From positions 1 to 40,741 of the forward strand of contig JAAYXZ010000019.1 in the NCBI GenBank assembly GCA_012515635.1: 40,741 bases of DNA, written 5' to 3'. Positions 7,791 through 33,308 of this stretch are shown in pieces. The translations under genes were made by a program, and so were the position numbers. The notes beneath the pieces were generated by a model. The model had not been told where the DNA came from. It saw only the letters and a program-made list of their open reading frames with translations, and made no database searches. The stretch comes from Elusimicrobiota bacterium. GTDB lineage: Bacteria > Ratteibacteria > UBA8468 > B48-G9 > JAFGKM01. The stretch's first letter is position 1; the number at the start of each line of letters is the position of its first letter.

Positions 7791-10080
7791 CCGCTTGCCC
7801 TGCGGAGATGCCTGCGTCATTGGCGGGGATGTGGTGATGGCAATAGACAGAGAAGCCGTTCCGGCGTAGGTCGGTCCAAGCCATATTAAGGAGAAGGTTG
7901 TTCTGAAACACTCCCCCTGAGAGAGCTACGCGGGATATGTTCTTTTCCTTCCGTATTTTTTTACATATTTCGGTAATCATTGCCGATACGGTTTTATTGA
8001 ATCTGTAGGAGATTATCTCTGTTGCTGTCCCTTTTTTTATATCCGCTACAATCTCTTTTATGATAGGGGAAGGGTCTATGACGAAAAGAGCGCCGGGTTT
8101 GTTGATATTGAAAAGATACTTCTTGGTATCTGTCTTTTGGGCGGTCATCTCAAGGCATACAGCCGCTTCTGCCTCATAGGCAATAGTGTCTCTTATCCCA
8201 AGTATTGCGGAGATGCCATCAAAGAGCCGTCCCATACTGGAAGCAGGCAGACAATTGATGTCTTTTTTCAGCATCTCTCCGATATATTCTGTGTTGCGGC
8301 GGTGTTTTTTCGTAAAGGGGATGTTTTGGCGTAAAAACTCGTCTCCGAAGGCGGTGTATAAAAGGGCGGCGCCGATTCTCCAGACATCCTTGATTGCCTT
8401 TGTTCCGCCCGGAAGCGGTATGTTGTCAAGAAAAGCGTATCTTTCATATTGCGTGTAGTCGGTAATAAGAAACTCGGCGCCCCGTATATCTCCGTCTTCT
8501 CCGTAGCCGGTTCCGTCAAAGGCAATGCCGATAATTTTTTCGTTAGGCAGGTTGTTGTCCATCATACAGGAAGCGATGTGGCTGTGGTGGTGCTGGATGC
8601 CTATGGTTTGTAGTTTTTTTTGTTTCGCCAGTTCTATTGCAAATTTTGTGGGGATATAGTCAGGATGCAAGTCATACGCAATTATTTCGGGAGAGAACCT
8701 GAATATGTTTGTGAAGCGGTTGAATACATCGGAATAGAAGTTGAATGATTCCATATTCTCCTGTGAGCCGGTGTGCTGACTCATTATAATCTGCTCTTCT
8801 CTGCCAAAGGCAAATGTGTTTTTCTCTTCAGCCCCTGCCGCAAAGACCTGTTTTTTGAAGCGAACAGGGGTTGTTATCGCTTCAGGTGTATAGCCGCGGG
8901 CTTTGCGTATTATGTAAGGTTTCTTTTCAGGAGATAGCCTTAATACAGAGTCGTCGCAACCTGTTTTTATGGGGCGGTTGTTGGTAAGGATATAATCGGA
9001 GATACCTGCAAGTTTTTTTAATTCTTTTTTGCTGTCCTTGAATATAATGGGGCTGTCAGCGATGTTGGCGCTTGTGGCTACAATGACATCAGGACAGCCG
9101 AAGAAGAATAAGAGGTGGTGGACAGGCGTATATGGCAGAAAGAATCCTAAGTATTTGTTGCAAGGGGCAACCTCATCGGGAATATCAGCGTTTGCCCTCT
9201 TTTTTAGCAGCACCACGGGAGTCCGCCATGATGTTAGCAGTTGCTCTTCCTCTTTGTTGACTGAGCAGTGTTGTTTGATGGTTTTGATGTCTCCCGCCAT
9301 AAGGGCAAAGGGCTTGTCTCCTCTTTTTTTCAATGTCCGTAATCTGTTTACAGCAAGAGTGTTTTTTGCGTCGCAGACAAGATGATAGCCGCCCGACCCT
9401 TTCACTGCCACAATGGAGCCCTCTCTTATCAGGTCGGCGGTCTTTTCTACGGCGTTTACTCCTCTGCTTAATATACGGTTTTTAGTCAGGAATATATCAG
9501 GTCCGCAGGTAAAACAACAATTGGGTTGCGCGTGAAATCTTCTGTTAGCGGCGTCGTTATACTCCTTTGAGCATAAGGGGCACATCTTGAATATCGTCAT
9601 TGAGGTGTTTTTCCTGTCATATGGGATATTCTCGGTGATGGTATATCGGGGACCGCAGTTTGTGCAGTTGATAAATGGAAAGAGATGGCGGCGGTCTTGA
9701 CGGTTAAAGAGTTCTTTCAAGCAATCATCACAGACAGCAATATCGGGAGAAATCTCAGTTTGTATGGTCCCTGTAATGCTTGGGGTTTCAATAATGCTAA
9801 AGTTCCTTTCATTTTTTAAGGATACAGCGGGTATTACTGAAAGGGTGGTTATGCGGGACCGTGAAGGGGGCAGGGTCTTTATCTTTTCAATAAAACGCTT
9901 TATATTGGCAGAGAGCCCTTCCGCTTCAATATAAACTCCGTCTGCGGCATTACATACAAAGCCGGTCAGTTTATTTTCAACAGCATACCTGAATACCGTA
10001 GGTCTGAACCCTACCCCCTGCACTCTACCGTTAATTAGGAGTTTTACTCTTCTTTTTATTAAGAGAACCATCGTTCCCAC
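7756..10080 (-). CDS. hypF: [NiFe]-hydrogenase maturation carbamoyltransferase HypF
   Basis: Acylphosphatase VQGVGFRP, two zinc-finger pairs ([15 protein letters not shown] and CPLC..CCFTCGP), a YrdC-like middle region and a Kae1-like C-terminus (NDAGIS.GQA). Confidence 0.93.
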
Positions 10081-10869: not shown

Positions 10870-11244
10870 TTAAGGTTCTTTTTTAATGGTTATGGTCTCT
10901 TCCGATGATATGGTCTCCAGTTTTGCATAATCAGATATCATCTCTCCTACAACTTCAACCGCACTGGCGGGGATGGGCTTTTCTCCTTTGCTGATAGGCG
11001 TCGGACCGAAGAAAAGACATAAGCACCTTCCCTCATTCCAGTAAGCGACATCCCCTTTGTTTACCTCATTGACAGCATTCTCCAGTTTGCTTGTGACCGG
11101 TATTTCAAAATAAATCTCCTTGCCCCATATTCTTGTTCTTGCGGTCAATGGGAGTGTATTGTAAATTTTTTCTGCCAACGGTGTATTTTTCATAAGCAAC
11201 TTGATTATAATATCGCCTGTTTGTATGATGACCGTTTTTTCCAT
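10870..11244 (-). CDS. cyclophilin-like (TM1367-type) domain protein
   Basis: 124 aa. The pattern NTPLAEKIYNTLP...IWG.EIYF.....E.......GDVAYW..G..LCLFFGPTP matches the cyclophilin-like family of unknown function. Confidence 0.6.
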   Translation of the reverse strand: MEKTVIIQTGDIIIKLLMKNTPLAEKIYNTLPLTARTRIWGKEIYFEIPVTSKLENAVNEVNKGDVAYWNEGRCLCLFFGPTPISKGEKPIPASAVEVVGEMISDYAKLETISSEETITIKKEP

Positions 11245-18720: not shown

Positions 18721-19740
18721 ATGGATATACTATACATAACAAAACAGGATTGGGACAATTTTATTCAAGGGAAGGCGGAGAGTGTTGATATCTTCGCTCC
18801 TTTTGAACAGGACGGTAGATTGCTTTACGGGAAGGTCTCGCCTGAGAATAAACAAGAGATTGTCTATAACAGAGTACGGACTGTGGAGCCGCTTAAGATG
18901 TTTTTTGTTCCGCTTAAGGAGAGAGTTGTGCCTGATGCGCAGGAGATTCCGGAGAGAGTTATTATGGGGGTGACTAACTGCGATATGAGCGGGCTTAAGA
19001 TTCTTGATAAGGTGTTCCGTGACGGTGAATATAAAGCCCCTAACTATGCGGAGCGCAGAGCAAAGACGCTCATTATAAGCGCAGATTGTCTTTCGCCCTA
19101 TCCTTCCTGTTTTTGTGAAATTGTGGGGACGCATCCATACTCCGAAGAGGGGTTTGATTTGAATATATCTCTGCTTGGGGATGGTGTTCTTGTAGATGTA
19201 GGGTCTGAAAAGGGGCGTTCTTTCATAGGGGGCGACCAGAAATTTTTTCAGGCAAGCAAGGAACAGATAGACCAGAGAGAGAACAACAGGCAAAAGACAT
19301 CTGAAAAGATAAGAGAGGCGAACAGGGAGTTTGACCTTACGGATATTAGGAAGAGGATGAGAGGGGCGTACCATACAGAGATTTGGAGAATGCCTAAGGA
19401 TATAGAAAATTGTGTGCAATGCGGGAGTTGCACAAATACTTGTCCAACATGTGTCTGTTTTTTACTTGAAGACACAGGGGAGCAGGGGCAGACGACGAAA
19501 GGCAAGGTTTGGGATAGTTGTCTTTTTCCCGGGTATGCGCGTATGGCTGCGGGGGCTTCCCCAAGACCTACGCTTTATGACAGATATGCAAACCGATTGC
19601 TCTGTAAATACTGGTATATGGTGGAACATTTCGGATTGTTTGGTTGCACAGGATGCGGAAGATGTATTGCCGGGTGTGCCGGTAAGATTGACAAGAGAAA
19701 AGTTCTTACAGAGGTGTTAAGAGAGAGGCAGCAGATATAA
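18721..19740 (+). CDS. HydB/AsrA-like iron-sulfur subunit (2x[4Fe-4S])
   Basis: CVQCGSCTNTCPTC and CTGCGRCIAGC ferredoxin motifs. Its size and its pairing with the following FAD/NAD subunit resemble sulfhydrogenase beta or anaerobic sulfite reductase A. Confidence 0.7.
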   Translation: MDILYITKQDWDNFIQGKAESVDIFAPFEQDGRLLYGKVSPENKQEIVYNRVRTVEPLKMFFVPLKERVVPDAQEIPERVIMGVTNCDMSGLKILDKVFRDGEYKAPNYAERRAKTLIISADCLSPYPSCFCEIVGTHPYSEEGFDLNISLLGDGVLVDVGSEKGRSFIGGDQKFFQASKEQIDQRENNRQKTSEKIREANREFDLTDIRKRMRGAYHTEIWRMPKDIENCVQCGSCTNTCPTCVCFLLEDTGEQGQTTKGKVWDSCLFPGYARMAAGASPRPTLYDRYANRLLCKYWYMVEHFGLFGCTGCGRCIAGCAGKIDKRKVLTEVLRERQQI

Positions 19741-19744
19741 TAAA

Positions 19745-20575
19745 ATGGATAAAAATATATATAAACCGATAAGATGTGAGGTAAAGGAAGTTATTACGGA
19801 ATCGCCGACAATAAAAACTGTTGTTCTTAAACCGGAAGAAGAGTTTTCTTTTCTTGCGGGACAGTTTGCGTTACTGACGGTGCATGGGGTGGGAGAGGCG
19901 CCGTTTACCCCGTCATCTTCGCCTTATGACAAGGAAAAACTTGAATTTACCGTGATGAAGACGGGGAGAGTGACAGATGCAATACATAACCTTAAACCGG
20001 GGGATATCGTGGGTGTCCGCGGACCGTATGGCAAACCATATCCTCTGGACCTTTATAAGGGGAAAGAGGTTCTTCTCGTAGGTGGCGGAGTGGGGCTTGC
20101 TCCTATCAGGGCTTTGTTTTTGGCTTTGATGGAGACGGCGGATAAGTATAAAAGGGTTGTCTTTTGCTGTGGAGCGAAGACCCCTCAGGATTACATATAT
20201 AAAGACCAGATTTTTGATAAGTGGCAGAATCTTTGCGAGCAAAACCCGTTATGTTTCAGGATAACCGTGGATAAGAAGGATGAACAATGGAGATATGACG
20301 AGGGGGTAGTGACAAAAGCGTTAGATGGTCTTGATGTTGATATAAGCAACTCTGTTGCGGTAGTTTGCGGGCCGCCAATAATGATGAAGTTCACAACACT
20401 AAAACTTTTGGAGTTGGGTTATAAAGACCATCAGATATACCTTTCAATGGAAAGGAAGATGTATTGCGCTGTAGGGCAATGCAGGCATTGCCTTATAGGC
20501 GATTTGTATGTTTGCAAGGATGGTCCTGTCTTTACCTATGATGTGATTAAAGGTAAGCCGAATATATGGGTATAA
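19745..20575 (+). CDS. HydG/AsrB/PyrK-like FAD/NAD(P)-binding subunit with C-terminal [2Fe-2S]
   Basis: FNR-like fold: PFTPSS (flavin), LLVGGGVGLAPI (NAD(P) binding), and C-terminal CAVGQCRHC...C. Confidence 0.75.
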   Translation: MDKNIYKPIRCEVKEVITESPTIKTVVLKPEEEFSFLAGQFALLTVHGVGEAPFTPSSSPYDKEKLEFTVMKTGRVTDAIHNLKPGDIVGVRGPYGKPYPLDLYKGKEVLLVGGGVGLAPIRALFLALMETADKYKRVVFCCGAKTPQDYIYKDQIFDKWQNLCEQNPLCFRITVDKKDEQWRYDEGVVTKALDGLDVDISNSVAVVCGPPIMMKFTTLKLLELGYKDHQIYLSMERKMYCAVGQCRHCLIGDLYVCKDGPVFTYDVIKGKPNIWV

Positions 20576-20664
20576 AAAAAGATAGGAAGATGTTGCGGGA
20601 AAATTACAGGTTAAAGGAGTTTTCCTAATAGCGTTATCTATAAAAATTGCGATGAGTTAACACT

Positions 20665-21156
20665 ATGAAAAAACTATTTATTGATTATGATAAGTTTTTG
20701 AGTATTCCCGATGAGGAACTTCAGTGCAGTTATAAGATGCACCCGACAAACAACGGAATACTTACTTTAAGAGAAGAGATTGCTTTTCTCTTTGCCTGTA
20801 GAAGGTGCGAGGATTATCCCTGCGTGAATAGTTGCCCTACAGGCGCGCTTAAGAAAGAAGAAGGTCTTATTAAACGTTCTAATGTTGTCTGCATCTCTTG
20901 CAAGACCTGCTCCCTTGCCTGTCCTTTCGGAACCATACTGCAGGAGTTGTTGCCGTATCTTGTGAGCAGATGCGATATCTGTATAGGGCGGTTAAGGGAA
21001 GGGGAAGAACCTCTTTGCGTCCGCACATGTAAAAACGGGGCAGTAAAGTATCTGGATGAAGATGAGATTAAGGATAAAACAAATATCTATACTATTGGGG
21101 ATCGTATAGTGGTCAGGGTCTTTAACTGGCTAAAAGAATACGGGATAAAAAAATGA
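20665..21156 (+). CDS. HycB/HyfA-like polyferredoxin electron-transfer subunit
   Basis: CRRCEDYPCVNSCP, CISCKTCSLACP, and CDIC....CVRTC. It overlaps the next gene by 4 nt. Confidence 0.75.
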   Translation: MKKLFIDYDKFLSIPDEELQCSYKMHPTNNGILTLREEIAFLFACRRCEDYPCVNSCPTGALKKEEGLIKRSNVVCISCKTCSLACPFGTILQELLPYLVSRCDICIGRLREGEEPLCVRTCKNGAVKYLDEDEIKDKTNIYTIGDRIVVRVFNWLKEYGIKK

Positions 21157-22082
21157 AAATTTTTTATATACTCTTGTATTTTGTTGCGGCGCTTCTGTCG
21201 TTCAGCATTTATGGAATGCTTGCGATGTGGGTGGACAGAAAAGTTACCGCGCGAATACATTTTAGGGTGGGGCCTCCATGGTATCAGAACTTTGTGGATT
21301 TCATAAAACTTACAGGTAAAGAGGTCCTGATACCTGAGAAGGCGAATGTGCTTATGTTTGTTTCGGCTCCTGTGTTGGGGGTGATTGCTGCAGCGGTAGC
21401 GGGGACAACAATACTTCTGGTTTTGCAAAACAATATCAGTTTTGCCGCAGATGCAATACTTGTTATTTATCTTCTGACGATTCCTTCATTGGCTGTTATA
21501 CTTGGCGGCAGCGCTTCAGGTAATGTTTTGGCGTCGGTAGGCATTAGCAGGGAGATGAAACTGTTGCTTGGCTACGAACTGCCGTTTGTATGCGCTCTGA
21601 TTATTGCGGCAGTGAAAAGCGGTTCAACGACATCTTTGGGAGAGATTATACAATTCCAGCAGCAAAACGGGAAACTCATCGGCTCTCTTTCAGGTGTTAT
21701 TGGGTTTGGTCTTGGCGTTTTGGCATTGCAGGGCAAAATCGGTTTTGTGCCGTTTGACCTTGCTGAAGCGGAAGGGGAGTTGGCAGGCGGCTCATTTATT
21801 GAGTATTCGGGCATACTGCTTGGCTTGTATAAACTTACTAAGGCAATTTTGCTTGTTGTGGGGCCGTTGTTTCTTATCTCTTTGTATATGGGCGGGATAA
21901 ACTTTTCTTCTGTAGCGGGGGTTATTGCGGGATTATTGAAATATTTTGTTATACTGGTGATTTTTATTCTTATAAAAAACACCAATCCCCGCCTTAGGAT
22001 AGACCAGGCGTTGAAATTGTTTTGGGGATGGCTTACTTTGTTCGGCATAATAGGGATATTGTTGGCTTTAGCAGGATGGTGA
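21153..22082 (+). CDS. NuoH/HycD/MbhM-like membrane subunit
   Basis: Polytopic 309 aa. Motifs MWVDRKV.ARIHFR.GP and FVPFDLAEAEGEL are hallmarks of the NuoH family. Confidence 0.85.
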   Translation: MKIFYILLYFVAALLSFSIYGMLAMWVDRKVTARIHFRVGPPWYQNFVDFIKLTGKEVLIPEKANVLMFVSAPVLGVIAAAVAGTTILLVLQNNISFAADAILVIYLLTIPSLAVILGGSASGNVLASVGISREMKLLLGYELPFVCALIIAAVKSGSTTSLGEIIQFQQQNGKLIGSLSGVIGFGLGVLALQGKIGFVPFDLAEAEGELAGGSFIEYSGILLGLYKLTKAILLVVGPLFLISLYMGGINFSSVAGVIAGLLKYFVILVIFILIKNTNPRLRIDQALKLFWGWLTLFGIIGILLALAGW

Positions 22083-22086
22083 AAAA

Positions 22087-22503
22087 ATGAACTTGAAAAC
22101 GAAAGCGTTAAAAAAATCATTGTGGGTGTACCATATGTCGGGAGGGTCTTGCAATAATTGCGATATAGAGATACTGGATTGCCTGACGCCTAAATTTGAC
22201 CTTGAACGGTTTGGCATAGTGCTTGTAGGAAGCCCGAGGCATGCGGATGTGTTGCTATGCACGGGTATAGTTAATAAAAAATGTGTAGAGAGGGTGAAAG
22301 AGGTTTATGAGCAGACAGCCAAGCCCTGTGTGGTGGTGGCAATCGGCGCTTGCGCTTGTTCGGGGGGTATGTTCAGGGATAGTTATGAGATGGGCGGACC
22401 GTTGAATAAAATTATACCGGTGGATATCTATATTCCAGGGTGTCCGCCTAAACCGGAGGCAATGATTGCAGGGATAGTTAAAGTTCTGGAGAAACTGAAA
22501 TGA
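22087..22503 (+). CDS. group-4 [NiFe] hydrogenase small subunit (NuoB/HycG/MbhJ-like)
   Basis: Cys ligands for the proximal cluster: GSCNNCDIE, GACACSGG, and PGCPPKPE. Confidence 0.9.
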   Translation: MNLKTKALKKSLWVYHMSGGSCNNCDIEILDCLTPKFDLERFGIVLVGSPRHADVLLCTGIVNKKCVERVKEVYEQTAKPCVVVAIGACACSGGMFRDSYEMGGPLNKIIPVDIYIPGCPPKPEAMIAGIVKVLEKLK

Positions 22504-22937
22504 AAGATATCATAGGAAGGATTCAGAGTAAACTGGGAGATAGAGGAAAAGATATAAAAGAACAGACCAACAATCGGGTGTATGTCTCTGTGGATAGAAA
22601 AAATATAAAAGAATGCGCAAAGATATTGTTTGAAGATATGGATGCCAGATATATTGTGGCTTCAGGTATGGAGAACTTTGATAGTTTTGAGATTCTGTAC
22701 CATTTCGGGTTTGACAAGGAAAGCGCTATTGTTTCGCTCAGAGTGTATCTTGACAAGGATAATCCTGAGATAGATACATTGACGGATATTATTCCGGGTA
22801 TCTCCTATATTGAGCGCGAGATGTGGGAATTGTTGGGGATAAACTTTAAAGGGCATCCGAATATGAAACATTTTCTGTTAGGAGATGACTGGGAAAAGGG
22901 GAATTATCCGTTAAGGAAGGATAAATATGAAAAATAA
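22500..22937 (+). CDS. NuoC/MbhK-like 30-kDa-type subunit
   Basis: 145 aa. IEREMWELLGI.F.GHP is the NuoC signature. It is a separate gene here, not fused to the large subunit. Confidence 0.85.
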   Translation: MKDIIGRIQSKLGDRGKDIKEQTNNRVYVSVDRKNIKECAKILFEDMDARYIVASGMENFDSFEILYHFGFDKESAIVSLRVYLDKDNPEIDTLTDIIPGISYIEREMWELLGINFKGHPNMKHFLLGDDWEKGNYPLRKDKYEK

Positions 22938-24123
22938 CAAAAAAACGGTTATTGTTCCGATAGGTCCCTACCATCCGCTTCTGGAGGAGCCGGAGTTTTT
23001 TGCTCTGTATTGCGACGGGGAAAAGATAGTGGATGTGGAGTGGCAGGCGGGCTATAATCATCGAGGGATAGAAAAACTGTCGGAGAGTAAACACTGGGAC
23101 CAGGTAACATTTTTGGTTGAAAGGATTTGCGGAATATGTTCCACTTCTCATCCTTTTGCATATTGTAATACCATAGAAAACTTGATAGGAATGACTATTC
23201 CTGAAAGGGCAAAGTACATAAGAAGCATTATCGGGGAGTTGGAGCGCATACACAGTCATCTTTTGTGGATGGGGCTTGCAGGACATTTCCTCGGTTATAA
23301 TACGGTGTTTATGTGGGCTTGGAAATATAGGGAGCCGGTATTGGACCTCTTTGAAATTATCAGCGGGAACAGAAACCATTATGCGATGTTCAAGATAGGC
23401 GGTGTAAGAAGAAATATAGAGAATGAGGATATTCCCAAGATAAGAAAGATGCTTGCTGAAATTAAAGGGCAGTTAGAGATGTTGATAGGCGCTGTTCTTG
23501 ATGACCCTGTGCTGACGGCGCGTTTGAAAAATGTGGGAGTCCTTACAAAACAGGATATAAAAAACTTTGGCTCGGTGGGACCTGTTGCAAGGGCAAGCGG
23601 AGTTGATGTGGATGTCAGGCGAGATGAGCCGTATGCGGCATATCCTCTTGTGGAATGGAGCGTTATAACCGCTAAAAACGGGGATGTGCTTGATAAGGCG
23701 GTTGTGCGGCTTTCAGAGTGTCTGGAGGCGGTTAAAATTATAACCCAGTGCCTTGACGCTATTGAAGGAAAGGCGGGGGAGATAGGCGAGGAGGTCAGGA
23801 GAGTGCCTGAAGGCGAAGGGATAGGCAGGCATGAGGCGCCGAGGGGCGAGTGCTTCCATTATATACGAAGTGATGGCGCGAATAGTCCTGTAAGACATAA
23901 GATTCGCGCGCCAAGTTATACAAATGTCCCTACATTCAAGGCGAGTTGTATTGGACAGACCATATCCGATGTCGCTATTATTTTAGCGGGGGTTGACCCT
24001 TGTTATTGCTGTACGGAGAGAGTGGCGGTTTATGATGCGGGAAAAAAGAAAAAACTTTATGATTTTCAGCATCTTGTAGAACTGTCAAAACAGAAGACGG
24101 AGAGGATTAGGAAAGAGATATAA
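22927..24123 (+). CDS. group-4 [NiFe] hydrogenase large (catalytic) subunit (NuoD/HycE/MbhL-like)
   Basis: N-terminal Ni-Fe motif RICGICSTSH and C-terminal DPCYCCTER. A 33-aa tail follows (VAVYDAGKKKKLYDF...), like the cleavable HycE extension. Confidence 0.92.
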   Translation: MKNNKKTVIVPIGPYHPLLEEPEFFALYCDGEKIVDVEWQAGYNHRGIEKLSESKHWDQVTFLVERICGICSTSHPFAYCNTIENLIGMTIPERAKYIRSIIGELERIHSHLLWMGLAGHFLGYNTVFMWAWKYREPVLDLFEIISGNRNHYAMFKIGGVRRNIENEDIPKIRKMLAEIKGQLEMLIGAVLDDPVLTARLKNVGVLTKQDIKNFGSVGPVARASGVDVDVRRDEPYAAYPLVEWSVITAKNGDVLDKAVVRLSECLEAVKIITQCLDAIEGKAGEIGEEVRRVPEGEGIGRHEAPRGECFHYIRSDGANSPVRHKIRAPSYTNVPTFKASCIGQTISDVAIILAGVDPCYCCTERVAVYDAGKKKKLYDFQHLVELSKQKTERIRKEI

Positions 24124-24125
24124 AA

Positions 24126-24743
24126 ATGAAGAAACCGAAGATACGTGAATTGAAAGAGGCGGTAAAAGGGATTTTTTCCAGACCGTATACAACGAAGTTC
24201 CCTTATCAACCGCATACACCGCCCCCGAGGTACAGGGGAAAGCCGGAGTATTATGAAGAAGGGTGTGTCGGTTGCGGGGCATGTTTTCAGGTATGTTCGG
24301 CAAATGCGATTGATATGATAGATAATACAGAAAAGGGCAATCCAATCAGAACCCTTATACAGCATCCGTCAAAGTGTATCTTCTGCAGGGAGTGCGAAAG
24401 AAATTGTATAACAGGCGAGGGGATTAAATTGACCCAAAGGTTTGATATCGCCTATGTAGACGAAGAAGATGTTCTCAGTTCCGTGAAGCATAAACTGATT
24501 ACCTGCCTGTATTGCGGGACGGTTATAGGAACAGAAAAACATCTGCGATGGGTATTGAAGCGTATTGGGAATTTAGGGTTTGCGCAGCCGGTTCTTCTTT
24601 CGCAACTTATGGAAGAACTGCAAGTCAAGACAGAATATGAGGAAAAAGGTGTTCCGCCTATCCAGAGAACGGATATGCTTAAGGTGGTGTGTCCAAAATG
24701 CAGGCGGATTGCTTTTATAAGCGATGAGAAAAAGGAAAAATAG
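24126..24743 (+). CDS. NuoI/HycF-like 2x[4Fe-4S] subunit with Cys-pair C-terminal tail
   Basis: CVGCGACFQVC and CIFCRECERNC. An extra CLYCG...CPKCRR tail resembles E. coli HycF as I recall it. Confidence 0.85.
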   Translation: MKKPKIRELKEAVKGIFSRPYTTKFPYQPHTPPPRYRGKPEYYEEGCVGCGACFQVCSANAIDMIDNTEKGNPIRTLIQHPSKCIFCRECERNCITGEGIKLTQRFDIAYVDEEDVLSSVKHKLITCLYCGTVIGTEKHLRWVLKRIGNLGFAQPVLLSQLMEELQVKTEYEEKGVPPIQRTDMLKVVCPKCRRIAFISDEKKEK

Positions 24744-24748
24744 ATAAA

Positions 24749-26113
24749 ATGTTCTTGAATAACATATTATTTTGGATAATTGCAACGCCGTTTTTAGCGG
24801 CGTTTGCAGTAAAACTTTTGCCTGTAAGGGTTGCGATTAAGGCAGGGATGTTGTTTCTGTTAGCGCAACTTACGCTCTGCGGTGTTATTGCGGCGCCTGT
24901 ATTCTCCTCCAAGGTCTTATATCTCGTGATAAAAAACATATTTTTTGTCGCTGACCCGTTAAGTTTTGTGTTCGGGATAACATCTGTTTTTATCGGTGTT
25001 TTCATATATCTTTTTGCGGTAGGTTATTTTGCGGAAGAGGCGCCTCGTGAACAGCAAAAATTTGCTTTCTGGGGGCTTGTCTTTGTGGGGAGCATGATGG
25101 GGGTTGTCTTCTCTGATAATCTTATCTCCTTATATTTTTTCTGGGAACTGGCAGGGTTGTGTTCGTGGAGATTGATTGGGTTTTATAGAAAAGATGAGCA
25201 TCTTCTTAAAGCGGATAAGGCGTTTCTGATAACCTCTGCCGGAGCGGGTTTTATGCTTTTGGGGTTTGCGTATATATATATTATTACAGGGTCTATGAGC
25301 ATCTCGCAGATAATGAATATGCAGGTGTCCCCGTTTGTTTTTGCTCTGGTTTTTCTTGGGGTCTTGACAAAGTCGGCTACACTCCCATTCCATACATGGT
25401 TGCCGGACGCATCGGTGGCTCCTACGCCTGTAACTTCGTTTTTGCATGCCGCTGTTCTGGTGAAGATAGGGGTGTATGGGTTGGCGCGTTTGTTCGGAAC
25501 AACATTAATTGTGTCAGGGAATGTTATGTGGGCGGGGTATCTTGCGCTCTTGAGTAGTTTTGCCGCAGGGGTTATCGCTATGAGAGAAACGGATATTAAA
25601 AGGATTCTCGCTTTTTCTACTGTAAGTCAACTGGGGTTTATGGTGGCGGGTCTTATGGTTTTTAATCCGATTGCCACGCGCGGGGTAGTGATTTTCTATG
25701 TAGCGCATGCCTTAGGTAAGGGGTGTCTGTTTCTCTGCGCAGGGATAATAGAGAAATTTTTTGGGACGAAGGATATAAAACAGATGGGCGGACTGATGAA
25801 AAAAGCCCCGTTGCTTACTTACGCGTTTCTTTTTAGCATGCTCTCTGTTGCAGGTTTTCCGCCGCTGCCCGGGTTTTATGGGAAACTGGAGACAATTACA
25901 GGGATGCTTGTTGGAGGGCATGTGTTTTATGGGTTGTTTGCAATACTGACATCTGCGTTGACGCTTATGTATATGATGCGTCTTTTCAGTAATGTGTTTA
26001 TGGGTGACGGAATGGAGATAAAGACCGAAAGAAAGGGTTTCGCTCCTATGGGGGTTGCGGCGGTATTGTTGGCAACCTCTTCACTGGTCTTGGGCGTTAT
26101 GCTTGTGTTGTAA
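24749..26113 (+). CDS. NuoM/N / MrpD / MbhH-like antiporter-type membrane subunit (copy 1)
   Basis: 454-aa polytopic protein with WLPDA..APTPVS..LHAA..VK.G.Y and STVSQLG motifs. Confidence 0.85.
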   Translation: MFLNNILFWIIATPFLAAFAVKLLPVRVAIKAGMLFLLAQLTLCGVIAAPVFSSKVLYLVIKNIFFVADPLSFVFGITSVFIGVFIYLFAVGYFAEEAPREQQKFAFWGLVFVGSMMGVVFSDNLISLYFFWELAGLCSWRLIGFYRKDEHLLKADKAFLITSAGAGFMLLGFAYIYIITGSMSISQIMNMQVSPFVFALVFLGVLTKSATLPFHTWLPDASVAPTPVTSFLHAAVLVKIGVYGLARLFGTTLIVSGNVMWAGYLALLSSFAAGVIAMRETDIKRILAFSTVSQLGFMVAGLMVFNPIATRGVVIFYVAHALGKGCLFLCAGIIEKFFGTKDIKQMGGLMKKAPLLTYAFLFSMLSVAGFPPLPGFYGKLETITGMLVGGHVFYGLFAILTSALTLMYMMRLFSNVFMGDGMEIKTERKGFAPMGVAAVLLATSSLVLGVMLVL

Positions 26114-26139
26114 AGAACAAAGTATCGGGAGGGAGTAAG

Positions 26140-27966
26140 TTGAATATAAATGTATGGTTTCTGCCTGTGGTTATAAGTTTCGGGATAGCCCTTGTCCATA
26201 TTATTTTTAAGAGGGCGGGGAGAAATGTAAGGAGATGGATATCTCTTATAGGGGCTATTGGAGCGCTTGGGGCATGCCTGTATTCAATGTTTATTAATTA
26301 CAATGTCCTTTCCAGCGGGGAGATTCTTGGGCTTGTCTTTGCGGCGCTGATATCTTTCATCGGGCTTTTCAGCATCTCTTATTCTCAGTGGTATAACCCC
26401 GAAGCCAATTTTGTATATGACGGGCTGTTGTTTCTCTTTCTCGGCGGTATGTTTGGGGTGGTGTTGAGCCACTCGCTTATAGCGTTGTATATATACTGGG
26501 AGATAATGACTGTCGCAAGTTTTTTCCTTATTCTCTTTAAAGATACACAAGAGTCAAGAAGGGCTTCACTTAAGTATATTGTAATGACAGGTGTCGGCAG
26601 TATGTTCCTTCTTTTTGGCATATTGGGGGCATGGATGGTGGAACTAAATATTCTGTGGAAACACATCTTCTTTGCCTGTGTTTTGATAGGGACAGGGGTT
26701 AAGATGGGATTGTTCCCTCTGCATACTTGGCTTCCCGATGCATATACGGCCGCTCCCACTCCTGCCTCCGCGATGTTTTCAGGGGTTATGGTCAAGACAG
26801 GGATTTATACGCTTATAAGGTTTTATTTTGCAATATTTCAGCCATCCTGGTCTCTGGGCTGGGATGCGATAATGATGGTGATAGGTGTTATTACGCTTTT
26901 GGGCGGTGTGTTTTTGGCGCTTATCCAGCATGATATAAAGCGGTTGCTTGCATATCACAGCATAAGCCAGATAGGATATATCTTTCTTGGTATTGCCTGC
27001 GGAACTCAGATAGGGCTTGTCGGGGCGCTGTATCATGCGATAAATCACGCAATATTTAAAAGTTTGCTTTTCCTTGGCGCCGGTGTGCTAATTAAGGAGA
27101 CGGGGTCAAGAAACTTAGAGGATTATGGCGGACTTGCAGGTAAATTGCCGTTGACCTTCGGGGTGATGACTGTTGCCGCTCTCTCTATATCGGGAGTGCC
27201 GCCGTTCAATGGGTTTGTGTCAAAATGGATTATATTTCAGGCGTTGCTTGCAAAAAACACAGGATTTTCTGTCTTTGCGCTTGTTGCGGCGTTGTTAGGG
27301 AGTGTGTTGACTCTCGCCTCTTTCATAAAAGTGCTTAATGACTCTTTTATGGGTGTTCGTAAAGCGAAGGTGTCTGTTCCAACGGTAGGAAAATCTCCTT
27401 TTATGAGTATTCCGTTGGTCTTGCTTGCTGTCGGGTGCTTGTTGTTCGGGGTTTTCCCCGGGTTTGTTACGGAGAGGTTTCTGTTTCCATCTATAGGGGA
27501 ATATCTGTTGTTGAATATATCACTGATAAAAATGGCAAGTTTTTATGGATGGTTAGCCATTTGCTTTATAGCGGTAATCTTTATTTTAAGCAGGAGATGG
27601 ATAAAAGGCGTAAGGAAGACAAGTGTTTTTGTGGGCGGTGAAATTCTGTCTGCGGAAGATACCGCTTTTGACGGGGCTCATTTTTACGGAACGGTGAAAG
27701 ATATTGCTCCCTTAAAGAGGTTTTATTCCGCTGAAGTCAGCGGTATGCTTGATATATACCGGAGGGGGTTGCAGTTCCTTCCCCGCATAGGAAAATGTGT
27801 CAGAGCCGCAACGGTTAATGCTGTGAATGCCGTATATGAGAAAGGGAGTGTTTTTCTGAGCAAGTGGGTGGAGCGGTTGAGGTTATTGCAGAACGGATAT
27901 TTAGCGAAATATCTTATCTGGTTTTTTGCAGGGCTTATAATTATTATGGAGGTTATAAGAAGATGA
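26140..27966 (+). CDS. mrpA: NuoL / MrpA N-terminal / HyfB-like antiporter-type subunit with long C-terminal arm (copy 2)
   Basis: TTG start 4 nt after GGGAGGGAG. WLPDAY.AAPTPASA, HSISQIG, and about 120 C-terminal residues that are largely non-TM and end in one TM helix. Confidence 0.8.
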   Translation: MNINVWFLPVVISFGIALVHIIFKRAGRNVRRWISLIGAIGALGACLYSMFINYNVLSSGEILGLVFAALISFIGLFSISYSQWYNPEANFVYDGLLFLFLGGMFGVVLSHSLIALYIYWEIMTVASFFLILFKDTQESRRASLKYIVMTGVGSMFLLFGILGAWMVELNILWKHIFFACVLIGTGVKMGLFPLHTWLPDAYTAAPTPASAMFSGVMVKTGIYTLIRFYFAIFQPSWSLGWDAIMMVIGVITLLGGVFLALIQHDIKRLLAYHSISQIGYIFLGIACGTQIGLVGALYHAINHAIFKSLLFLGAGVLIKETGSRNLEDYGGLAGKLPLTFGVMTVAALSISGVPPFNGFVSKWIIFQALLAKNTGFSVFALVAALLGSVLTLASFIKVLNDSFMGVRKAKVSVPTVGKSPFMSIPLVLLAVGCLLFGVFPGFVTERFLFPSIGEYLLLNISLIKMASFYGWLAICFIAVIFILSRRWIKGVRKTSVFVGGEILSAEDTAFDGAHFYGTVKDIAPLKRFYSAEVSGMLDIYRRGLQFLPRIGKCVRAATVNAVNAVYEKGSVFLSKWVERLRLLQNGYLAKYLIWFFAGLIIIMEVIRR

Positions 27967-28508
27967 TACTCAATCAGTGGCTGTTGGCTGCGCTAATGCT
28001 TCTTATGGCGGCGGGTTGTGTTATTGCTATTACGGCGCGGAGTTTGACTTCTTCTGTTGTCTCTATGGGAACAGCAGGGCTTATATTAAGTATTCTCTTT
28101 TTGCTTTTAGGTGCGCCGGATATAGCGATAGTGCAGGTTTTTGTGGAGATTGTTGCTTTGATAGTTTTGCTTTCAATTATACGGCGGGAGACAAGAGCAG
28201 ATATGACGACTTCAGGGTTATACGGTATATTGACGCTTGCTATTTTTGCTTTGTTATTAATGATATTTTTCATATACGGGAACGATATAGTGCGGCCTTT
28301 GGGCGTGCCTGTTATCACAATGGGGGGAGAGTATCTTGCATCATCGTCTCGTTTGCTGAGCGCTCCCAATGCTGTTACCTCTATTGTTCTGGACTTTAGG
28401 GGTTATGACACATTGGGGGAGGCAACGGTTATCTTTGTCGCTGTGGCAGGGGTTGTTGTCCTTTTACGAAGGAGAGGGAGGAAAGATGAAAAAAAAGGGG
28501 ATGAGTGA
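27963..28508 (+). CDS. MrpA C-terminal-like / MbhD+MbhE-like membrane subunit
   Basis: DUF4040-like N-terminal half (SVVSMG..G...S..F.LLGAPD.A..Q) and an MnhB-type block NAVTSIVLDFRGYDTLGE. ATG at 27963 follows GGAGG and overlaps the upstream stop (ATGA). Confidence 0.75.
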   Translation: MILNQWLLAALMLLMAAGCVIAITARSLTSSVVSMGTAGLILSILFLLLGAPDIAIVQVFVEIVALIVLLSIIRRETRADMTTSGLYGILTLAIFALLLMIFFIYGNDIVRPLGVPVITMGGEYLASSSRLLSAPNAVTSIVLDFRGYDTLGEATVIFVAVAGVVVLLRRRGRKDEKKGDE

Positions 28509-28962
28509 AATAGTTCAAAGTGTGGCGAAAATGGTGTTCCCCTTTATTGTGCTGTATGGTATCTCTCTTATCCTTTATGGGCATATAACGCCGGGCGGCG
28601 GGTTTGCGGGAGGCGTGATTCTTACGGGTGGATTTGTTTTGCTGGTGCTTGCCTTCGGAACAGATTATGCTTTCAGGATTCTGCCTGTTAATGTTGCAAA
28701 AGCGCTTGATAGTATAGGCGCTTTAGGGTTTCTTGCTGTTGCGTTGCTCGGGTTCACAGGTGGTGCGTTCTTTTATAATTTTCTTCCTAAAGGACACATC
28801 TTTCATCTTTGGAGTTCCGGGACTATAATTATCAGCAATATAATGATAGGGTTGAAGGTTGTTGCCGCTCTTTTTATAGCCATAGCCGTTATCTCTAAAG
28901 CGCGGTTGATACGGACCAAAGACGGGTTTCAATATAAGCAAAGCGGGGAGAGAAAACGATGA
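28486..28962 (+). CDS. mrpB: MrpB/MnhB/MbhF-like subunit
   Basis: LYGH.TPGGGFAGG motif. ATG at 28486 lies behind GGGAGG. Confidence 0.8.
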   Translation: MKKKGMSEIVQSVAKMVFPFIVLYGISLILYGHITPGGGFAGGVILTGGFVLLVLAFGTDYAFRILPVNVAKALDSIGALGFLAVALLGFTGGAFFYNFLPKGHIFHLWSSGTIIISNIMIGLKVVAALFIAIAVISKARLIRTKDGFQYKQSGERKR

Positions 28963-29309
28963 TTTTATATATTCTTATTGCGCTGATGTTTTTCATAGGG
29001 TTGTATGGGATGATTGCGAAGAAGAACATTATAAAAATTATTATAGGTATGAATATTGTAGGGTATGCATCCAATCTGCTGTTTGTTCTGCTGGGGTATA
29101 AATGGGACGGTATAGCGCCCATTCTGACAGAGGATATGTCGTTTGCCTATTTTCTGGAAAAAGCTGTTGACCCGTTGCCGCAAGCGCTTGTTCTTACATC
29201 AATAGTTATAGACCTTGCGTTTGTGGCGTTTCTTGCAGCGCTTGCCATACGGCTTTTTGAAAAATACGGGACATTTGATATAGATAAGATAAGGAGATTA
29301 AAGGGATGA
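28959..29309 (+). CDS. mrpC: MrpC/MnhC/NuoK-like subunit
   Basis: 116 aa with three TM segments. GLYG....KN.IK...G.NI pattern. Confidence 0.8.
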   Translation: MILYILIALMFFIGLYGMIAKKNIIKIIIGMNIVGYASNLLFVLLGYKWDGIAPILTEDMSFAYFLEKAVDPLPQALVLTSIVIDLAFVAFLAALAIRLFEKYGTFDIDKIRRLKG

Positions 29310-30790
29310 ACCATCTTATTACTCTTACTATGGCGATATATTTGGGAGGGGCATTTCTCATCTCCCTTTTATGGAGAGAAAATGAAACCGTTGCAGGAGC
29401 AGCGGCTATCTCTTTTGTGGCGTTATCCGCGATAACATCCGTTCTTTTAGGTATAGAGGTGTTTACTAACGGAAGCATTCTGTATTTTGCAGGCGGATGG
29501 GAGAGACCGTTGGGTATTGCTCTTATGCTTGACCCTCTATCCGCGCTCTTTCTGATAATGACAAATGTTATTGCTTTGCTTGTAACGATTTACTCTGCGG
29601 TCTATATGAAAAAATATACATGGACACCTTATTTTTATGTCCTGTTTCTAATTATGCTTGCAGGTATGAACGGCATACTTATAAGTATGGATATATTCAA
29701 TATCTATGTCTTTCTTGAAGTTGCTTCGGTAGCGTCATTTATGCTTGTTGCCTTTGGGCTGAGGGCGGAGGAACTTGAGGCCGCAATAAAATATACCGTG
29801 ATGAGTTTTATTGCGACTACAATGATACTTTTTGCTATTGCGCTCATTTACGGGTTTACCGGGACTTTGAATATAGCCCGGTTTATGGATGCGTCGGCAG
29901 GGCTTACACCTGTGCATCTGTGGTTTCTTGCGGGGCTTCTGCTTGCCGGATTTGCGCTGAAAGCCGCTTTGGTTCCTTTTCATTCATGGCTTCCCGATGC
30001 TCACTCTATGGCCCCTGCTCCCGTCTCTGCCGTGCTTTCAGGGATGTTTGTGAAGGTTGCGGGGCTTTATGTGATAATACGCGTTACCGCAAATATCTTT
30101 ACGAACCTGCCCCAGATACGTATATTGCTTTTGTTGTTCGGCGCGCTCTCAATGGTCTTTGGGGGACTGATGGCATACGGGCAAAAAAACATAAAGCGCC
30201 TTTATGCGTATTCCACCATAAGCCAGATTGGGTATTGTGCTGTGGGGTTGGGTATCGGCGGATATTTGGGGAGTTTGGGGGTTCTTATGCACTTTGTTGC
30301 CCATGCCTTCTCCAAAGCCCTTTTGTTTTTGAATATAGGAGCGGTGGAGTATGTGCGCGGGACAGTGGAATCAGATGACTTGAAAGGGTTAAACGACACC
30401 ATGCCTGTTACCACTCTTTTTGGAAGCACCGGTATGTTAGGCATAGCAGGGGTGCCGCCTATGGGTAATTTTTGGAGTAAACTTATTATTATTATAGCGG
30501 CGGTTAAGGCCGGCTATACAGGCATAGCGGTACTGTGTATTGTTGTGGCTGTAATTACTTTGGGGTATTTTCTTAAATTGCAACGGACGGTATATTGCAA
30601 TTTAACAGAGTCCCCTGTAAAAAAAGAGGCGCCGAAGACATTGCTGGTTCCTATGGGTATTCTGGCATTTATGGTCTTTGTGTCGGGGGTATTGCTGGTC
30701 CCGGGGATAAGAGAACATACGTTGGATAAAGCTGTTGCTGTGATGGAAAACTTTTCCTATGTAGATATTACGATAGGGGATAACAGATGA
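29306..30790 (+). CDS. mrpD: MrpD/MnhD/NuoM-N-like antiporter-type subunit (copy 3)
   Basis: 494 aa with WLPDAHS.APAPVSA.LSG and YSTISQIGY. Confidence 0.85.
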   Translation: MNHLITLTMAIYLGGAFLISLLWRENETVAGAAAISFVALSAITSVLLGIEVFTNGSILYFAGGWERPLGIALMLDPLSALFLIMTNVIALLVTIYSAVYMKKYTWTPYFYVLFLIMLAGMNGILISMDIFNIYVFLEVASVASFMLVAFGLRAEELEAAIKYTVMSFIATTMILFAIALIYGFTGTLNIARFMDASAGLTPVHLWFLAGLLLAGFALKAALVPFHSWLPDAHSMAPAPVSAVLSGMFVKVAGLYVIIRVTANIFTNLPQIRILLLLFGALSMVFGGLMAYGQKNIKRLYAYSTISQIGYCAVGLGIGGYLGSLGVLMHFVAHAFSKALLFLNIGAVEYVRGTVESDDLKGLNDTMPVTTLFGSTGMLGIAGVPPMGNFWSKLIIIIAAVKAGYTGIAVLCIVVAVITLGYFLKLQRTVYCNLTESPVKKEAPKTLLVPMGILAFMVFVSGVLLVPGIREHTLDKAVAVMENFSYVDITIGDNR

Positions 30791-31272
30791 ATCAACTTTT
30801 AGTTTTTATTTTGTTGTTCGGAATCTGGAAATTAATGACATGGAGTAATGACTTGGGGAGTTATATTGCAGGCATATTGTCCGCTCTCTTTATTACGCTC
30901 CTTTATGGGAAAGAGTTTCCCTATCATCCTAAACATACTTTTCAGATAAGAAGATACATTATTTTCATAAAGTTTCTTTTTGTTTTCCTGTATCAGATGA
31001 TAAAAGCAAACTTTGTGATGGCATACCGTATTTTAAGTCCCGGACCGCCTATCAAGCCGGGAGTGGTAAAGATATCTTTGCGTCTCAAATCGCCGTTGGG
31101 AAGGTTGATATTGGCGAATGCCATTACATTGGCGCCGGGAACATTCACATTAGACATAACAGAGGATACTCTTCTTATTCACTGGATATATGTAGGGACT
31201 ACAGACCCTGTAGAGGCGGAAGAGATGATATGCGGAAACTTACAAAGCATATTGAAGGAGGTCTTTGAATGA
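30787..31272 (+). CDS. mrpE: MrpE/MnhE-like subunit
   Basis: 161 aa. Its position after MrpD and the block AN.ITL.PGT..LD fit MnhE. Confidence 0.75.
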   Translation: MNQLLVFILLFGIWKLMTWSNDLGSYIAGILSALFITLLYGKEFPYHPKHTFQIRRYIIFIKFLFVFLYQMIKANFVMAYRILSPGPPIKPGVVKISLRLKSPLGRLILANAITLAPGTFTLDITEDTLLIHWIYVGTTDPVEAEEMICGNLQSILKEVFE

Positions 31273-31523
31273 TTCTTTTATTTTCGTTTCTAACCTTGTG
31301 TGTGGCGATGTGCGTATATAGGATATTCCGGGGTCCAAGGGCGGCGGACAGGATGGTGGGTATAGATATTCTCGGTATTATTATGATTATTTTTTGTGTG
31401 TTGCTATCGTTGTCTACCGGTTCCGAATGGTATATGAGTATAGCCATTGCTTGGGCTATTATAGGGTTTGTAAGCACTTTAACTCTGGCAAAATTTTTGG
31501 AGGGGAGGAACTTAAATGATTGA
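31269..31523 (+). CDS. mrpF: MrpF/MnhF-like subunit
   Basis: 84 aa with YRI.RGP...DR..G.D motif. Confidence 0.8.
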   Translation: MILLFSFLTLCVAMCVYRIFRGPRAADRMVGIDILGIIMIIFCVLLSLSTGSEWYMSIAIAWAIIGFVSTLTLAKFLEGRNLND

Positions 31524-31869
31524 TCTCCTTTTTTATGTTCTTATGTCCATCGGGCTGTGTTTTGTTTTTCTTGGTTGTGTGGGGCTTCTGAGAATGCCTG
31601 ATGTGTATTGCCGTCTGCAGGCATCTACAAAATGCGTAACACTTGGGACTGGCAGCATTCTCTTAGCCGCGCTGGCCAAAACAGGGTTTTCTGCTATAGG
31701 GATGAAGGCGTTGATATCCTTGGTCTTTTTATTTCTTAACTCACCTACCTCGGCGCATGCGCTTGCAAAGGCGGCGGATATTTCAGGAATCAAGTTTTGG
31801 GAAAAGCCGGGCGATGAAAAAATATATCCGGCAAAGCCGCGGCCTACTGTGGATAGCGATATAGAATAA
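31516..31869 (+). CDS. mrpG: MrpG/MnhG-like subunit
   Basis: G..GLLR.PD.Y.RL.ASTK..TLG motif. Confidence 0.8.
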   Translation: MIDLLFYVLMSIGLCFVFLGCVGLLRMPDVYCRLQASTKCVTLGTGSILLAALAKTGFSAIGMKALISLVFLFLNSPTSAHALAKAADISGIKFWEKPGDEKIYPAKPRPTVDSDIE

Positions 31870-32171: not shown

Positions 32172-33308
32172 ATGAAAAAAATACAGGTAATAGAGGTAGG
32201 AGCGAGTATATTTGAAGAGAATGATAAGATTGCAGGGGAAAACCGTTCTTTATTAAGAGAGATGAATACTGTTGCTATTAACGTTATGGGGTCGCCTGGC
32301 GCAGGTAAGACATCTGTCTTGGAAAAAACCATAGCCCAACTTAAAAGCAGTCTTTCTTTTGCCGTGATAGAAGGGGACATAAAAGGCGCTTTGGATGCTG
32401 AACGACTTGTAAGGTTGGAGATACCCGTTATCCAGATAAATACAGGCGGGGCTTGTCATTTGGATGCTTTGATGGTCAAAAAAGGGTTAGCGGCGCTTCC
32501 GTTAAAAGAGGCGGATGTTGTCTTTGTTGAGAATGTAGGCAATCTTGTGTGTCCCGCGGAATTTGATATAGGCGCCTTATTGAATGTGGTGATAGCAAGC
32601 GTGCCTGAAGGGGAGGATAAACCGCTAAAATATCCTATGATGTTTAAGACGGCGGATATATGCATCCTAAATAAAATGGATTTTTTGCCGTATGCGGATT
32701 TTGATATTAAGCGTTTCAAGAGATATCTCGGCGAGGTATCGTGCTGTAAATTATTTCCGCTCTCTGTCAAGAGCGGCGAAGGATTCTCCGCTTGGATAGA
32801 GGAGTTCTCTGATTTGCTGTGTAAGCAACGCGCGGGGTTGAAGGATATAGCATCTCTTGAATTAAAAGGAAGAGTGGCAATTATGGGGATAGGAGATAGA
32901 ATGAAGGCGGATGATGCCGTCGGTTCTCTTGTGGCGGAACTACTTAGCAAGACCGTGAAAAGAAAGAATATAAAAATCATTGATGCTGGGAATGCTGTGG
33001 AGAATTATGTCGGCGTAATCAAGCGGTTTAAGCCGGATACCGTTGTAGTTATAGATGCTGTGGATTTTCAAGGTAAGGCAGGGGATATAAAAATAATGGG
33101 ATGCGGAGAGATAGAGGAGACCACAATATCCACTCACGGCTTTTCGTTGGCGTTAATTTTAGAGAATCTGCAGAAAGAGACAGGGGCAGAATGCAGGATT
33201 ATAGGAGTTCAGCCAGTAAAGGTGTCTCTCTCCGAGGAGATATCCCCCGCTGTTGAAAGAGCCATCCAAAAACTTGTAAAAGAGATTACTTTGGGGCTCT
33301 GCAGGTAA
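32172..33308 (+). CDS. hypB: fusion of HypB nickel GTPase (N-terminal) with HycI/HybD-type hydrogenase maturation endopeptidase (C-terminal)
   Basis: Residues 1 to about 215 carry GSPGAGKTS, GGACHLD, ENVGNLVCP and NKMD. Residues about 225-378 carry MGIGDRMKADDAVG, IIDAGNAVEN, VVIDAVDF and STHGFSL (the Asp/Asp/His Ni-binding triad pattern of HycI). Confidence 0.8.
   Translation: MKKIQVIEVGASIFEENDKIAGENRSLLREMNTVAINVMGSPGAGKTSVLEKTIAQLKSSLSFAVIEGDIKGALDAERLVRLEIPVIQINTGGACHLDALMVKKGLAALPLKEADVVFVENVGNLVCPAEFDIGALLNVVIASVPEGEDKPLKYPMMFKTADICILNKMDFLPYADFDIKRFKRYLGEVSCCKLFPLSVKSGEGFSAWIEEFSDLLCKQRAGLKDIASLELKGRVAIMGIGDRMKADDAVGSLVAELLSKTVKRKNIKIIDAGNAVENYVGVIKRFKPDTVVVIDAVDFQGKAGDIKIMGCGEIEETTISTHGFSLALILENLQKETGAECRIIGVQPVKVSLSEEISPAVERAIQKLVKEITLGLCR

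Follow-up and report, generated by a model that had tools for sequence, protein, structure and literature searches.

The stretch of DNA analysed here, called the window throughout, is 40,741 nucleotides (nt) long and comprises positions 1 to 40,741 of contig JAAYXZ010000019.1 (assembly GCA_012515635.1), from an Elusimicrobiota bacterium that GTDB places in the Ratteibacteria. It carries a 19-gene plus-strand cluster for a [NiFe]-hydrogenase and an Mrp antiporter, and the last gene of that cluster encodes HypB, the nickel-delivering GTPase of hydrogenase maturation, joined in one polypeptide to a HycI-type maturation endopeptidase (Table 1). The open reading frame (ORF) begins with ATG and has no internal stop codon, as an earlier interpretation made from the letters of the DNA (the sequence-only reading) had claimed in proposing such a fusion. 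A Shine-Dalgarno-like AGAGGTG for the fusion gene lies within the 3' end of hypA, whose stop codon is 4 nt before the fusion ATG, and a convergent gene for isoleucine transfer RNA lies 23 nt downstream. We consider it probable, at roughly 0.87, that the product of this ORF truly serves [NiFe]-hydrogenase maturation in two ways, as a HypB GTPase and as a tethered HycI endopeptidase, and that this bifunctional protein arose once within one bacterial family.

Table 1. The fusion gene, its parts and associated genes, with positions in the window
Feature	Position	Strand	Basis or description
hypB::hycI fusion gene	32172..33308	+	single open frame, 378 aa
HypB G-domain, residues 1-213	32172..32810	+	TIGR00073, 2HF8 match, invariant motifs, dN/dS
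Inter-domain linker, residues 214-233	32811..32870	+	mean identity 0.20, indels, dN/dS, low pLDDT
HycI-type maturation endopeptidase domain, residues 234-378	32871..33305	+	PF01750, TIGR00072, 5ZBY match
Protease metal triad	D248 (32913-32915), D295 (33054-33056), H322 (33135-33137)	+	alignment to E. coli HycI
Group-4 (Hun-type) [NiFe]-hydrogenase large subunit, presumed substrate	22927..24123	+	PF00346 + PF00374
Large-subunit C-terminal extension, 33 aa (VAVYDAGKKKK...KEI)	24022..24120	+	predicted removal after Arg365
Short HypA, 85 aa	31910..32167	+	PF01155 39 bits, profile positions 1-67 of 112
Rest of hydrogenase/Mrp operon	18721..31869	+	FeS and FAD/NAD input proteins, HycB-like, NuoH/B/C/D/I-like core, Mrp antiporter subunits
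hypF (carbamoyltransferase)	7756..10080	-	same maturation pathway

Two complete maturation domains in one chain

Both domains are recovered by profile searches well above threshold. In Pfam, cobW/HypB (PF02492) covers residues 36-189 at 77 bits (cut-off 20.7) and HycI (PF01750) covers residues 254-373 at 69 bits (cut-off 23). The corresponding NCBIfam models are hypB (TIGR00073; residues 7-213, 238.5 bits, cut-off 121.2) and the maturation protease superfamily (TIGR00072; residues 237-373, 99.5 bits, cut-off 47.45). The N-terminal half aligns end to end with HypB of Methanocaldococcus jannaschii (2HF8, E=1.9e-44), Archaeoglobus fulgidus (2WSM) and Helicobacter pylori (4LPS). The C-terminal half aligns end to end with HycI of Thermococcus kodakarensis (5ZBY, E=1.4e-25) and of Escherichia coli (2E85/2I8L, E=1.3e-13), and more weakly with HybD (1CFZ).

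An AlphaFold2 model built from a 70-sequence alignment has a mean predicted local distance difference test score (pLDDT) of 89.3 and consists of two well-folded domains. Its sole weak stretch is at about residues 221-233, and pLDDT in the linker is about 59. In a Foldseek comparison with the PDB, the HypB half superimposes on 2HF8 with template modelling (TM) scores of 0.94-0.96 and a root-mean-square deviation of 1.1-1.2 Å, and the HycI half gives TM scores of 0.89 to 5ZBY, 0.77 to 2E85/2I8L and 0.75 to HybD 1CFZ. Thus, profiles, PDB matches and structural comparison all uphold the identification of the C-terminal half as a HycI-type endopeptidase, which had been made by eye, and that of the N-terminal half as HypB.

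The motifs on which these identifications had been based are all present: GSPGAGKTS, GGACHLD, ENVGNLVCP and NKMD in the HypB half, and MGIGDRMKADDAVG, IIDAGNAVEN, IDAVDF and STH in the protease half. They include the P-loop (G40-T47), the metal ligands C95/H96 and C127, ENVGNLVCP at residues 120-128 and NKMD at residues 167-170. Residues C95, H96 and C127 align with the GKECHLD and NLICP blocks of 2HF8, and D248, D295 and H322 with the GDDG, VDA and TTH blocks of E. coli HycI (2E85/2I8L), where we take the equivalent residues to be Asp16, Asp62 and His90. In an alignment of 19 fusion proteins that are 47-67% identical to the query, the P-loop, C95-H96, ENVGNLxCP (including C127), NKxD and the D248/D295/H322 triad are invariant in every sequence.

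The sequence-only reading had also drawn attention to the missing N-terminal high-affinity nickel site. The first 35 residues do contain no cysteine and no histidine, so that neither a CxxCGC nor a His-rich site is present, but this absence is ordinary, because the closest solved HypB proteins align from their first residues without an N-terminal Ni-site extension. Archaeal HypB proteins are not known to have this site. With the E. coli-type HypB model NF007775 (PRK10463) the score is 222 bits, whereas 385 would be needed, and by its sequence the HypB half is assigned to the short HypB type. Like the short stand-alone proteins of M. jannaschii (2HF8/2HF9) and A. fulgidus (2WSM), to which it is 39% identical, it has the whole G-domain with P-loop and NKxD, and a Cys-His plus Cys metal site at the dimer interface without the N-terminal nickel site. 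It differs from them in that its C-terminal helix runs on through the linker into the protease, and in that its partner HypA has no zinc domain. The protease half resembles the group-4 HycI enzymes (5ZBY; 2E85/2I8L; MEROPS A31) in its full fold, its Asp-Asp-His triad and a substrate with DPCxxCxxR and a tail of about 32 residues. There, however, HycI is a free protein of about 155 residues, whereas here it forms the C-terminal part of a HypB protein. Outside its own family, the closest HycI that stands alone is 35-40% identical to it.

The linker between the domains varies among fusion proteins both in length (about 9-20 residues) and in sequence, and its low model confidence and weak conservation suggest that it behaves as a flexible tether. 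The cell might nevertheless contain two proteins, either through post-translational splitting or through a protease half made from an internal start. An in-frame ATG at M238 (nt 32883) with a purine-rich stretch upstream is compatible with the latter. However, the family has I, V, A or L at this column, and M238 is part of the beta-strand (residues 235-240) with which the HycI fold begins, so that a product beginning there would lose the strand; initiation at M238 was rejected for these two reasons. The linker also lacks any conserved motif that could serve as a processing site. A two-protein outcome is thus very improbable.

The hydrogenase operon and the presumed substrate

The cluster that ends in the fusion gene includes two AsrAB-like input proteins (one iron-sulphur, one FAD/NAD), a HycB-like ferredoxin, a NuoH/B/C/D/I-like core that contains the large subunit, and a complete Mrp antiporter module, which is followed by a short HypA and then the fusion. 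The large subunit has two CxxC pairs, in L1 RICGICSTSH and L2 DPCYCCTER. This CGIC...CYCC signature is the one reported for HunG of the [NiFe]-hydrogenase-Na+/H+ antiporter complex that Glass et al. named "Hun" (10.1101/536078), and the operon resembles the Hun operon in its make-up as well. From the signature, the AsrAB-like input proteins and the full Mrp module, the hydrogenase is classed as a Hun-type group 4 enzyme.

The sequence-only reading had placed a cognate substrate with a HycE-like cleavage context close by. This presumed substrate is found in the same operon: the large subunit continues after DPCYCCTER into a 33-residue tail, and a tail of 33-35 residues is kept at this point (DPCYCCTER|VAVYD...) across the fused clade. 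By analogy with E. coli HycE, cleavage is predicted after Arg365. In the genome, which is 1.07 Mb long and about 92% complete, HycI and HypB each have a single match and there is a single [NiFe] large subunit, which makes the fusion the sole source of both activities for the sole hydrogenase. Of the remaining maturation genes, hypF is in the window, and hypC, hypD and hypE were located on other contigs by tblastn of the genome.

Homologues of the fusion with 50-54% identity occupy the same place in the operon, after MrpG and a short HypA, and unfused hypB-hycI pairs do likewise. In one sister genus with separate genes (g7), genes for catalytic subunits are missing upstream of the block Mrp-hypA-hypB-hycI. 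Even in a 10-contig assembly, the Hun large subunit (78% identical) is encoded on another contig than this block (G044:C11 vs C12; G048:C43 vs C6; G041:C5 vs C33), and the Hun operon seems to be split in two in this genus.

The short HypA keeps the MHE nickel-binding N-terminus and has no CxxC zinc domain. A link between this zinc-less HypA and the fusion was considered and rejected, since the short form occurs phylum-wide in fused and unfused genomes alike: HypA has 84-92 residues and no CxxC in fused and unfused relatives from several families of the phylum (loci L003-L045).

A cyclophilin-like protein (PF04126/PF18050) recurs beside hyp genes. In the window (10870-11244, minus strand) its gene heads an M55-peptidase-hypF operon; in L003 (11104-11469) and L004 it overlaps the 3' end of the fusion gene, and in L005 (13507-13896) it lies between the fusion and hypF. 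By analogy with the role of the peptidyl-prolyl isomerase SlyD in E. coli, this protein may be a further maturation factor.

Distribution, origin and selection

The fusion is rare. In a collection of 5.8 billion proteins, about 27 protein clusters, 47-67% identical to the query, combine PF02492 and PF01750 in chains of 362-392 residues. They derive from NCBI, JGI, ENA and Logan assemblies, and those with names are labelled just "HypB" and come from metagenome-assembled genomes (MAGs) of Candidatus Ratteibacteria or Omnitrophica. Among species genomes of the window's phylum, 17 of 65 have the fused frame, and all 17 carriers belong to a single family, in which they make up genus g1, to which the window belongs, and parts or all of g3 and g6. 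When 1.84 billion representatives at 50% identity were searched exhaustively with HMMER, the result was one full-length fusion (P0008) and one fragment spanning the junction (P0129), with HypB alone in the remaining top matches and no second fusion family. A region-restricted search for HycI domains within long proteins, constrained by its word index, returned three close relatives. The architecture is thus real but restricted to one narrow lineage.

This distribution also bears on whether a missed stop codon or frameshift, in sequencing or assembly, joined two real genes. Sister genera do have two overlapping genes at this place, and an error of one nucleotide could mimic a fusion. However, the same continuous frame occurs in 17 independently assembled species genomes (the window's and 16 others) and in about 27 clusters from different projects, the linkers differ in length and are all in frame, and the fused forms make up one well-supported clade. 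An artefact is extremely unlikely, and the interruption between the halves that would have separated them into two genes is not seen.

Several candidates for an independent fusion were rejected. Long "HypB" matches have C-terminal domains unrelated to the protease, and at two loci of Solirubrobacterales with apparent matches to both halves, protease, hypA and hypB are separate genes in this order. Among the 50%-identity representatives, P0137, P0143, P0260, P0173 and P0163 combine a HypB G-domain with MnmE helical, YchF C-terminal, KH, SLT transglycosylase and methyltransferase domains; these architectures are probably chimeric gene calls or assembly joins and not real. In one Solirubrobacterales locus (L082, 1129-1998), the maturation protease upstream of hypB is a 289-residue ORF, with an N-terminal extension of about 125 residues before the protease domain. 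Within the genus of the window, one genome (G024; contigs C157 and C101, L052) has two partial copies of the fusion, covering query residues 118-378 at 58-61% identity and each ended by a contig edge, which could reflect duplication or strain heterogeneity in the MAG.

Unfused relatives preserve the preceding state. In genera g7 (10 genomes), g4 and g2 of the same family, hypB is directly followed by a separate hycI, with an overlap between them of 43-46 nt in g7, of 4 nt (ATGA) in g4 and of 37 nt in g2. In more distant families, the protease gene is upstream of hypA-hypB or elsewhere. The hycI ATG of g7 lies within the W-I-E-Y codons of HypB, with hycI in the -1 frame; this overlap (L022-L025, L028-L033; e.g., L022 8996-9038) is unusually long and conserved for a gene pair. 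The sister-genus pairs (e.g., G048:C43, L022) resemble the fusion in gene order, in the operon end MrpG-hypA-hypB-hycI and in the hydrogenase, and their HypB and HycI are 51-57% and 36-53% identical to its halves. They differ in having two ORFs, each in a frame of its own and with 43-46 nt in common, which is the arrangement that preceded the fusion.

In a maximum-likelihood tree of concatenated HypB and HycI (38 taxa, LG+C20+F+G4), all 16 fused sequences form one clade with support of 100/99, the adjacent unfused forms branch outside it, and one change of state is needed. The fused forms are monophyletic, and therefore derive from one fusion event. Since hycI lies in the -1 frame of an overlapping pair, a single small indel could join the frames, and the simplest history would place one such indel at or close to the overlap before g1, g3 and g6 diverged. 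Current linkers are longer than a bare frameshift would yield and differ from each other by indels, which indicates that the linker changed after the fusion.

The possibility that unfused g7 genomes produce a joined protein by programmed -1 frameshifting was also considered. A_AAA_AAG or A_AAA_AAA occurs in the hypB zero frame in 4 of 10 genomes. In-frame slippery heptamers number 2-12 per hypB gene and 0.30 per 15 codons of background ORFs in these AT-rich genomes, and the heptamer is not conserved; these occurrences were attributed to chance and the possibility was rejected.

Selection was estimated as the ratio of nonsynonymous to synonymous substitution rates (dN/dS) from moderately diverged pairs inside the fused clade. 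The ratio is 0.06-0.14 for the HypB half (mean pairwise identity 0.66) and 0.09-0.35 for the HycI half (0.57), and the linker, with a mean pairwise identity of 0.20, is near neutral at 0.08-1.8. These values indicate that purifying selection maintains both enzyme domains.

The tether and hydrogenase maturation

Several observations weigh against the interpretation of the ORF as a bifunctional maturation protein, or limit what it would imply. The score for the hycI equivalog model TIGR00142, which is the highest-scoring specific protease model for the C-terminal half, is 110.2 bits, narrowly under the cut-off of 119.1, and for this reason the domain is named HycI-type and not a strict HycI equivalog. 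The AlphaFold2 model has a predicted TM score (pTM) of 0.62 and a linker that is neither confidently placed nor conserved, with no sign of a fixed interface between the domains, so that the fusion may provide no mechanistic coupling beyond co-expression. HypB works as a GTP-dependent dimer, and dimerisation must accommodate two tethered protease domains. Lastly, every carrier is an uncultivated MAG.

The TIGR00142 score is also what might be expected if one domain were a degenerate remnant, such as a dead protease kept as a docking module or a HypB scaffold that has lost GTPase activity. However, the nucleotide-binding, metal-binding and catalytic positions are all invariant across the 19 aligned proteins, and dN/dS for both halves is well under 1. 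Moreover, the genome has no other HypB or protease gene, yet its large subunit keeps a 33-residue tail that needs removal. Degeneration of either half is, if anything, a shade less probable than the production of two separate proteins.

The final steps of [NiFe]-hydrogenase maturation are nickel insertion by HypA and HypB and then removal of the large-subunit tail by a nickel-sensing protease, and their order and hand-over are partly understood. For the bifunctional protein, the following sequence of events is proposed. By homology, the HypB domain (a G3E-family GTPase of the SIMIBI class) would bind nickel at the C95/H96/C127 site, presumably as a GTP-dependent dimer. Handed on by the short HypA through its MHE N-terminus, Ni(II) would then reach the large-subunit precursor already loaded with Fe(CN)2CO. 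The HycI domain, on a flexible tether of about 20 residues, would recognise the nickel-loaded precursor through its Asp-Asp-His site and cut at DPCYCCTER|VAVYD, and with the tail lost the active site could close. Synthesis of the two activities would be guaranteed at a 1:1 ratio and in the same place, and the protease would stay near the site of nickel delivery. As for how the fusion came about, the proposal is that it occurred once, in the common ancestor of the three genera, from a hypB-hycI order that was already present with a 4-46 nt overlap, and that the linker then drifted and changed in length. Joining a general chaperone to a substrate-specific protease would cost nothing in such a cell, because one hydrogenase needs one protease. 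This economy may explain why the fusion is tolerated in a streamlined lineage and has not been observed in organisms with several hydrogenases.

The sequence-only reading went further in regarding nickel delivery and the subsequent proteolytic step as physically tethered. One chain does join the two domains, while the coupling of the two steps is something that we infer, and the linker is variable and predicted to be flexible. A serious alternative for the significance of the fusion, although not for its identity, is neutral gene packing. The domains would work just as the stand-alone versions do, the fusion being a selectively neutral consequence of the way in which a streamlined genome resolved the overlap between two genes, with no kinetic or ordering gain from the tether. 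The properties of the linker (about 20% conserved, with indels, dN/dS of 0.08-1.8 and low model confidence) and the pTM are as this alternative predicts. Sister genera manage with separate overlapping genes for the same hydrogenase at 77-82% identity, and among the 1.84 billion representatives the fusion occurs in a single narrow clade. Against this, the fused state has been kept down to about 47% identity and in three genera, with reversion in none of 17 genomes, a pattern that fits neutrality or benefit alike. We rate neutral packing a little short of an even chance.

At the other extreme, the fusion can be read as a "Rosetta stone" for hydrogenase maturation in general. Nickel insertion and proteolysis would then take place everywhere in one transient complex of HypA, HypB, endopeptidase and precursor, with the protease pre-docked on the tail during GTP hydrolysis. 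We regard this generalisation as unlikely, though less so than a degenerate domain. If it were true, nickel release would directly license cleavage, and in the fused protein nature would have stabilised the complex, giving structural work a handle for trapping it.

A physical link of another kind is known for a related GTPase. In IcmF (4XC6), which is among the Foldseek neighbours of the G-domain, a G3E-family metallochaperone GTPase is naturally fused to a protein of the same maturation or repair pathway, which makes it the closest precedent in concept. There, however, a MeaB-like chaperone is fused to its client, isobutyryl-CoA mutase, whereas in the window the GTPase is joined not to its client but to the enzyme that acts next in maturation. 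No natural HypB-HycI fusion was found in the literature on HypB/HycI fusion, Ratteibacteria hydrogenases or maturation endopeptidases, and no report of a physical link between HypB and a protease was found in the literature searched. The terms HypB, HycI, protease and maturation each have zero occurrences in the description of Hun by Glass et al. (10.1101/536078), and "fused" and "fusion" have none in a 2025 Metallomics review of [NiFe] cofactor assembly. The fusion is thus a new domain architecture made from two well-known maturation proteins and, as the sequence-only reading had supposed, was found nowhere described. Its distribution is narrow, and it implies no new chemistry.

The bifunctional protein has potential as a single-chain reagent for trapping precursor and maturase together, by cryo-electron microscopy or crystallography, and as a compact part that would supply both maturation functions when group-4 hydrogenases are expressed in other hosts. 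Because databases label it just "HypB", genomes of the clade will seem to lack a maturation protease. The family holds a clean record of the passage from an overlapping gene pair to a fusion, with the intermediate state preserved in sister genera. For hydrogenase maturation itself, the fusion is comparative evidence that HypB and the protease can act next to each other on a single substrate.

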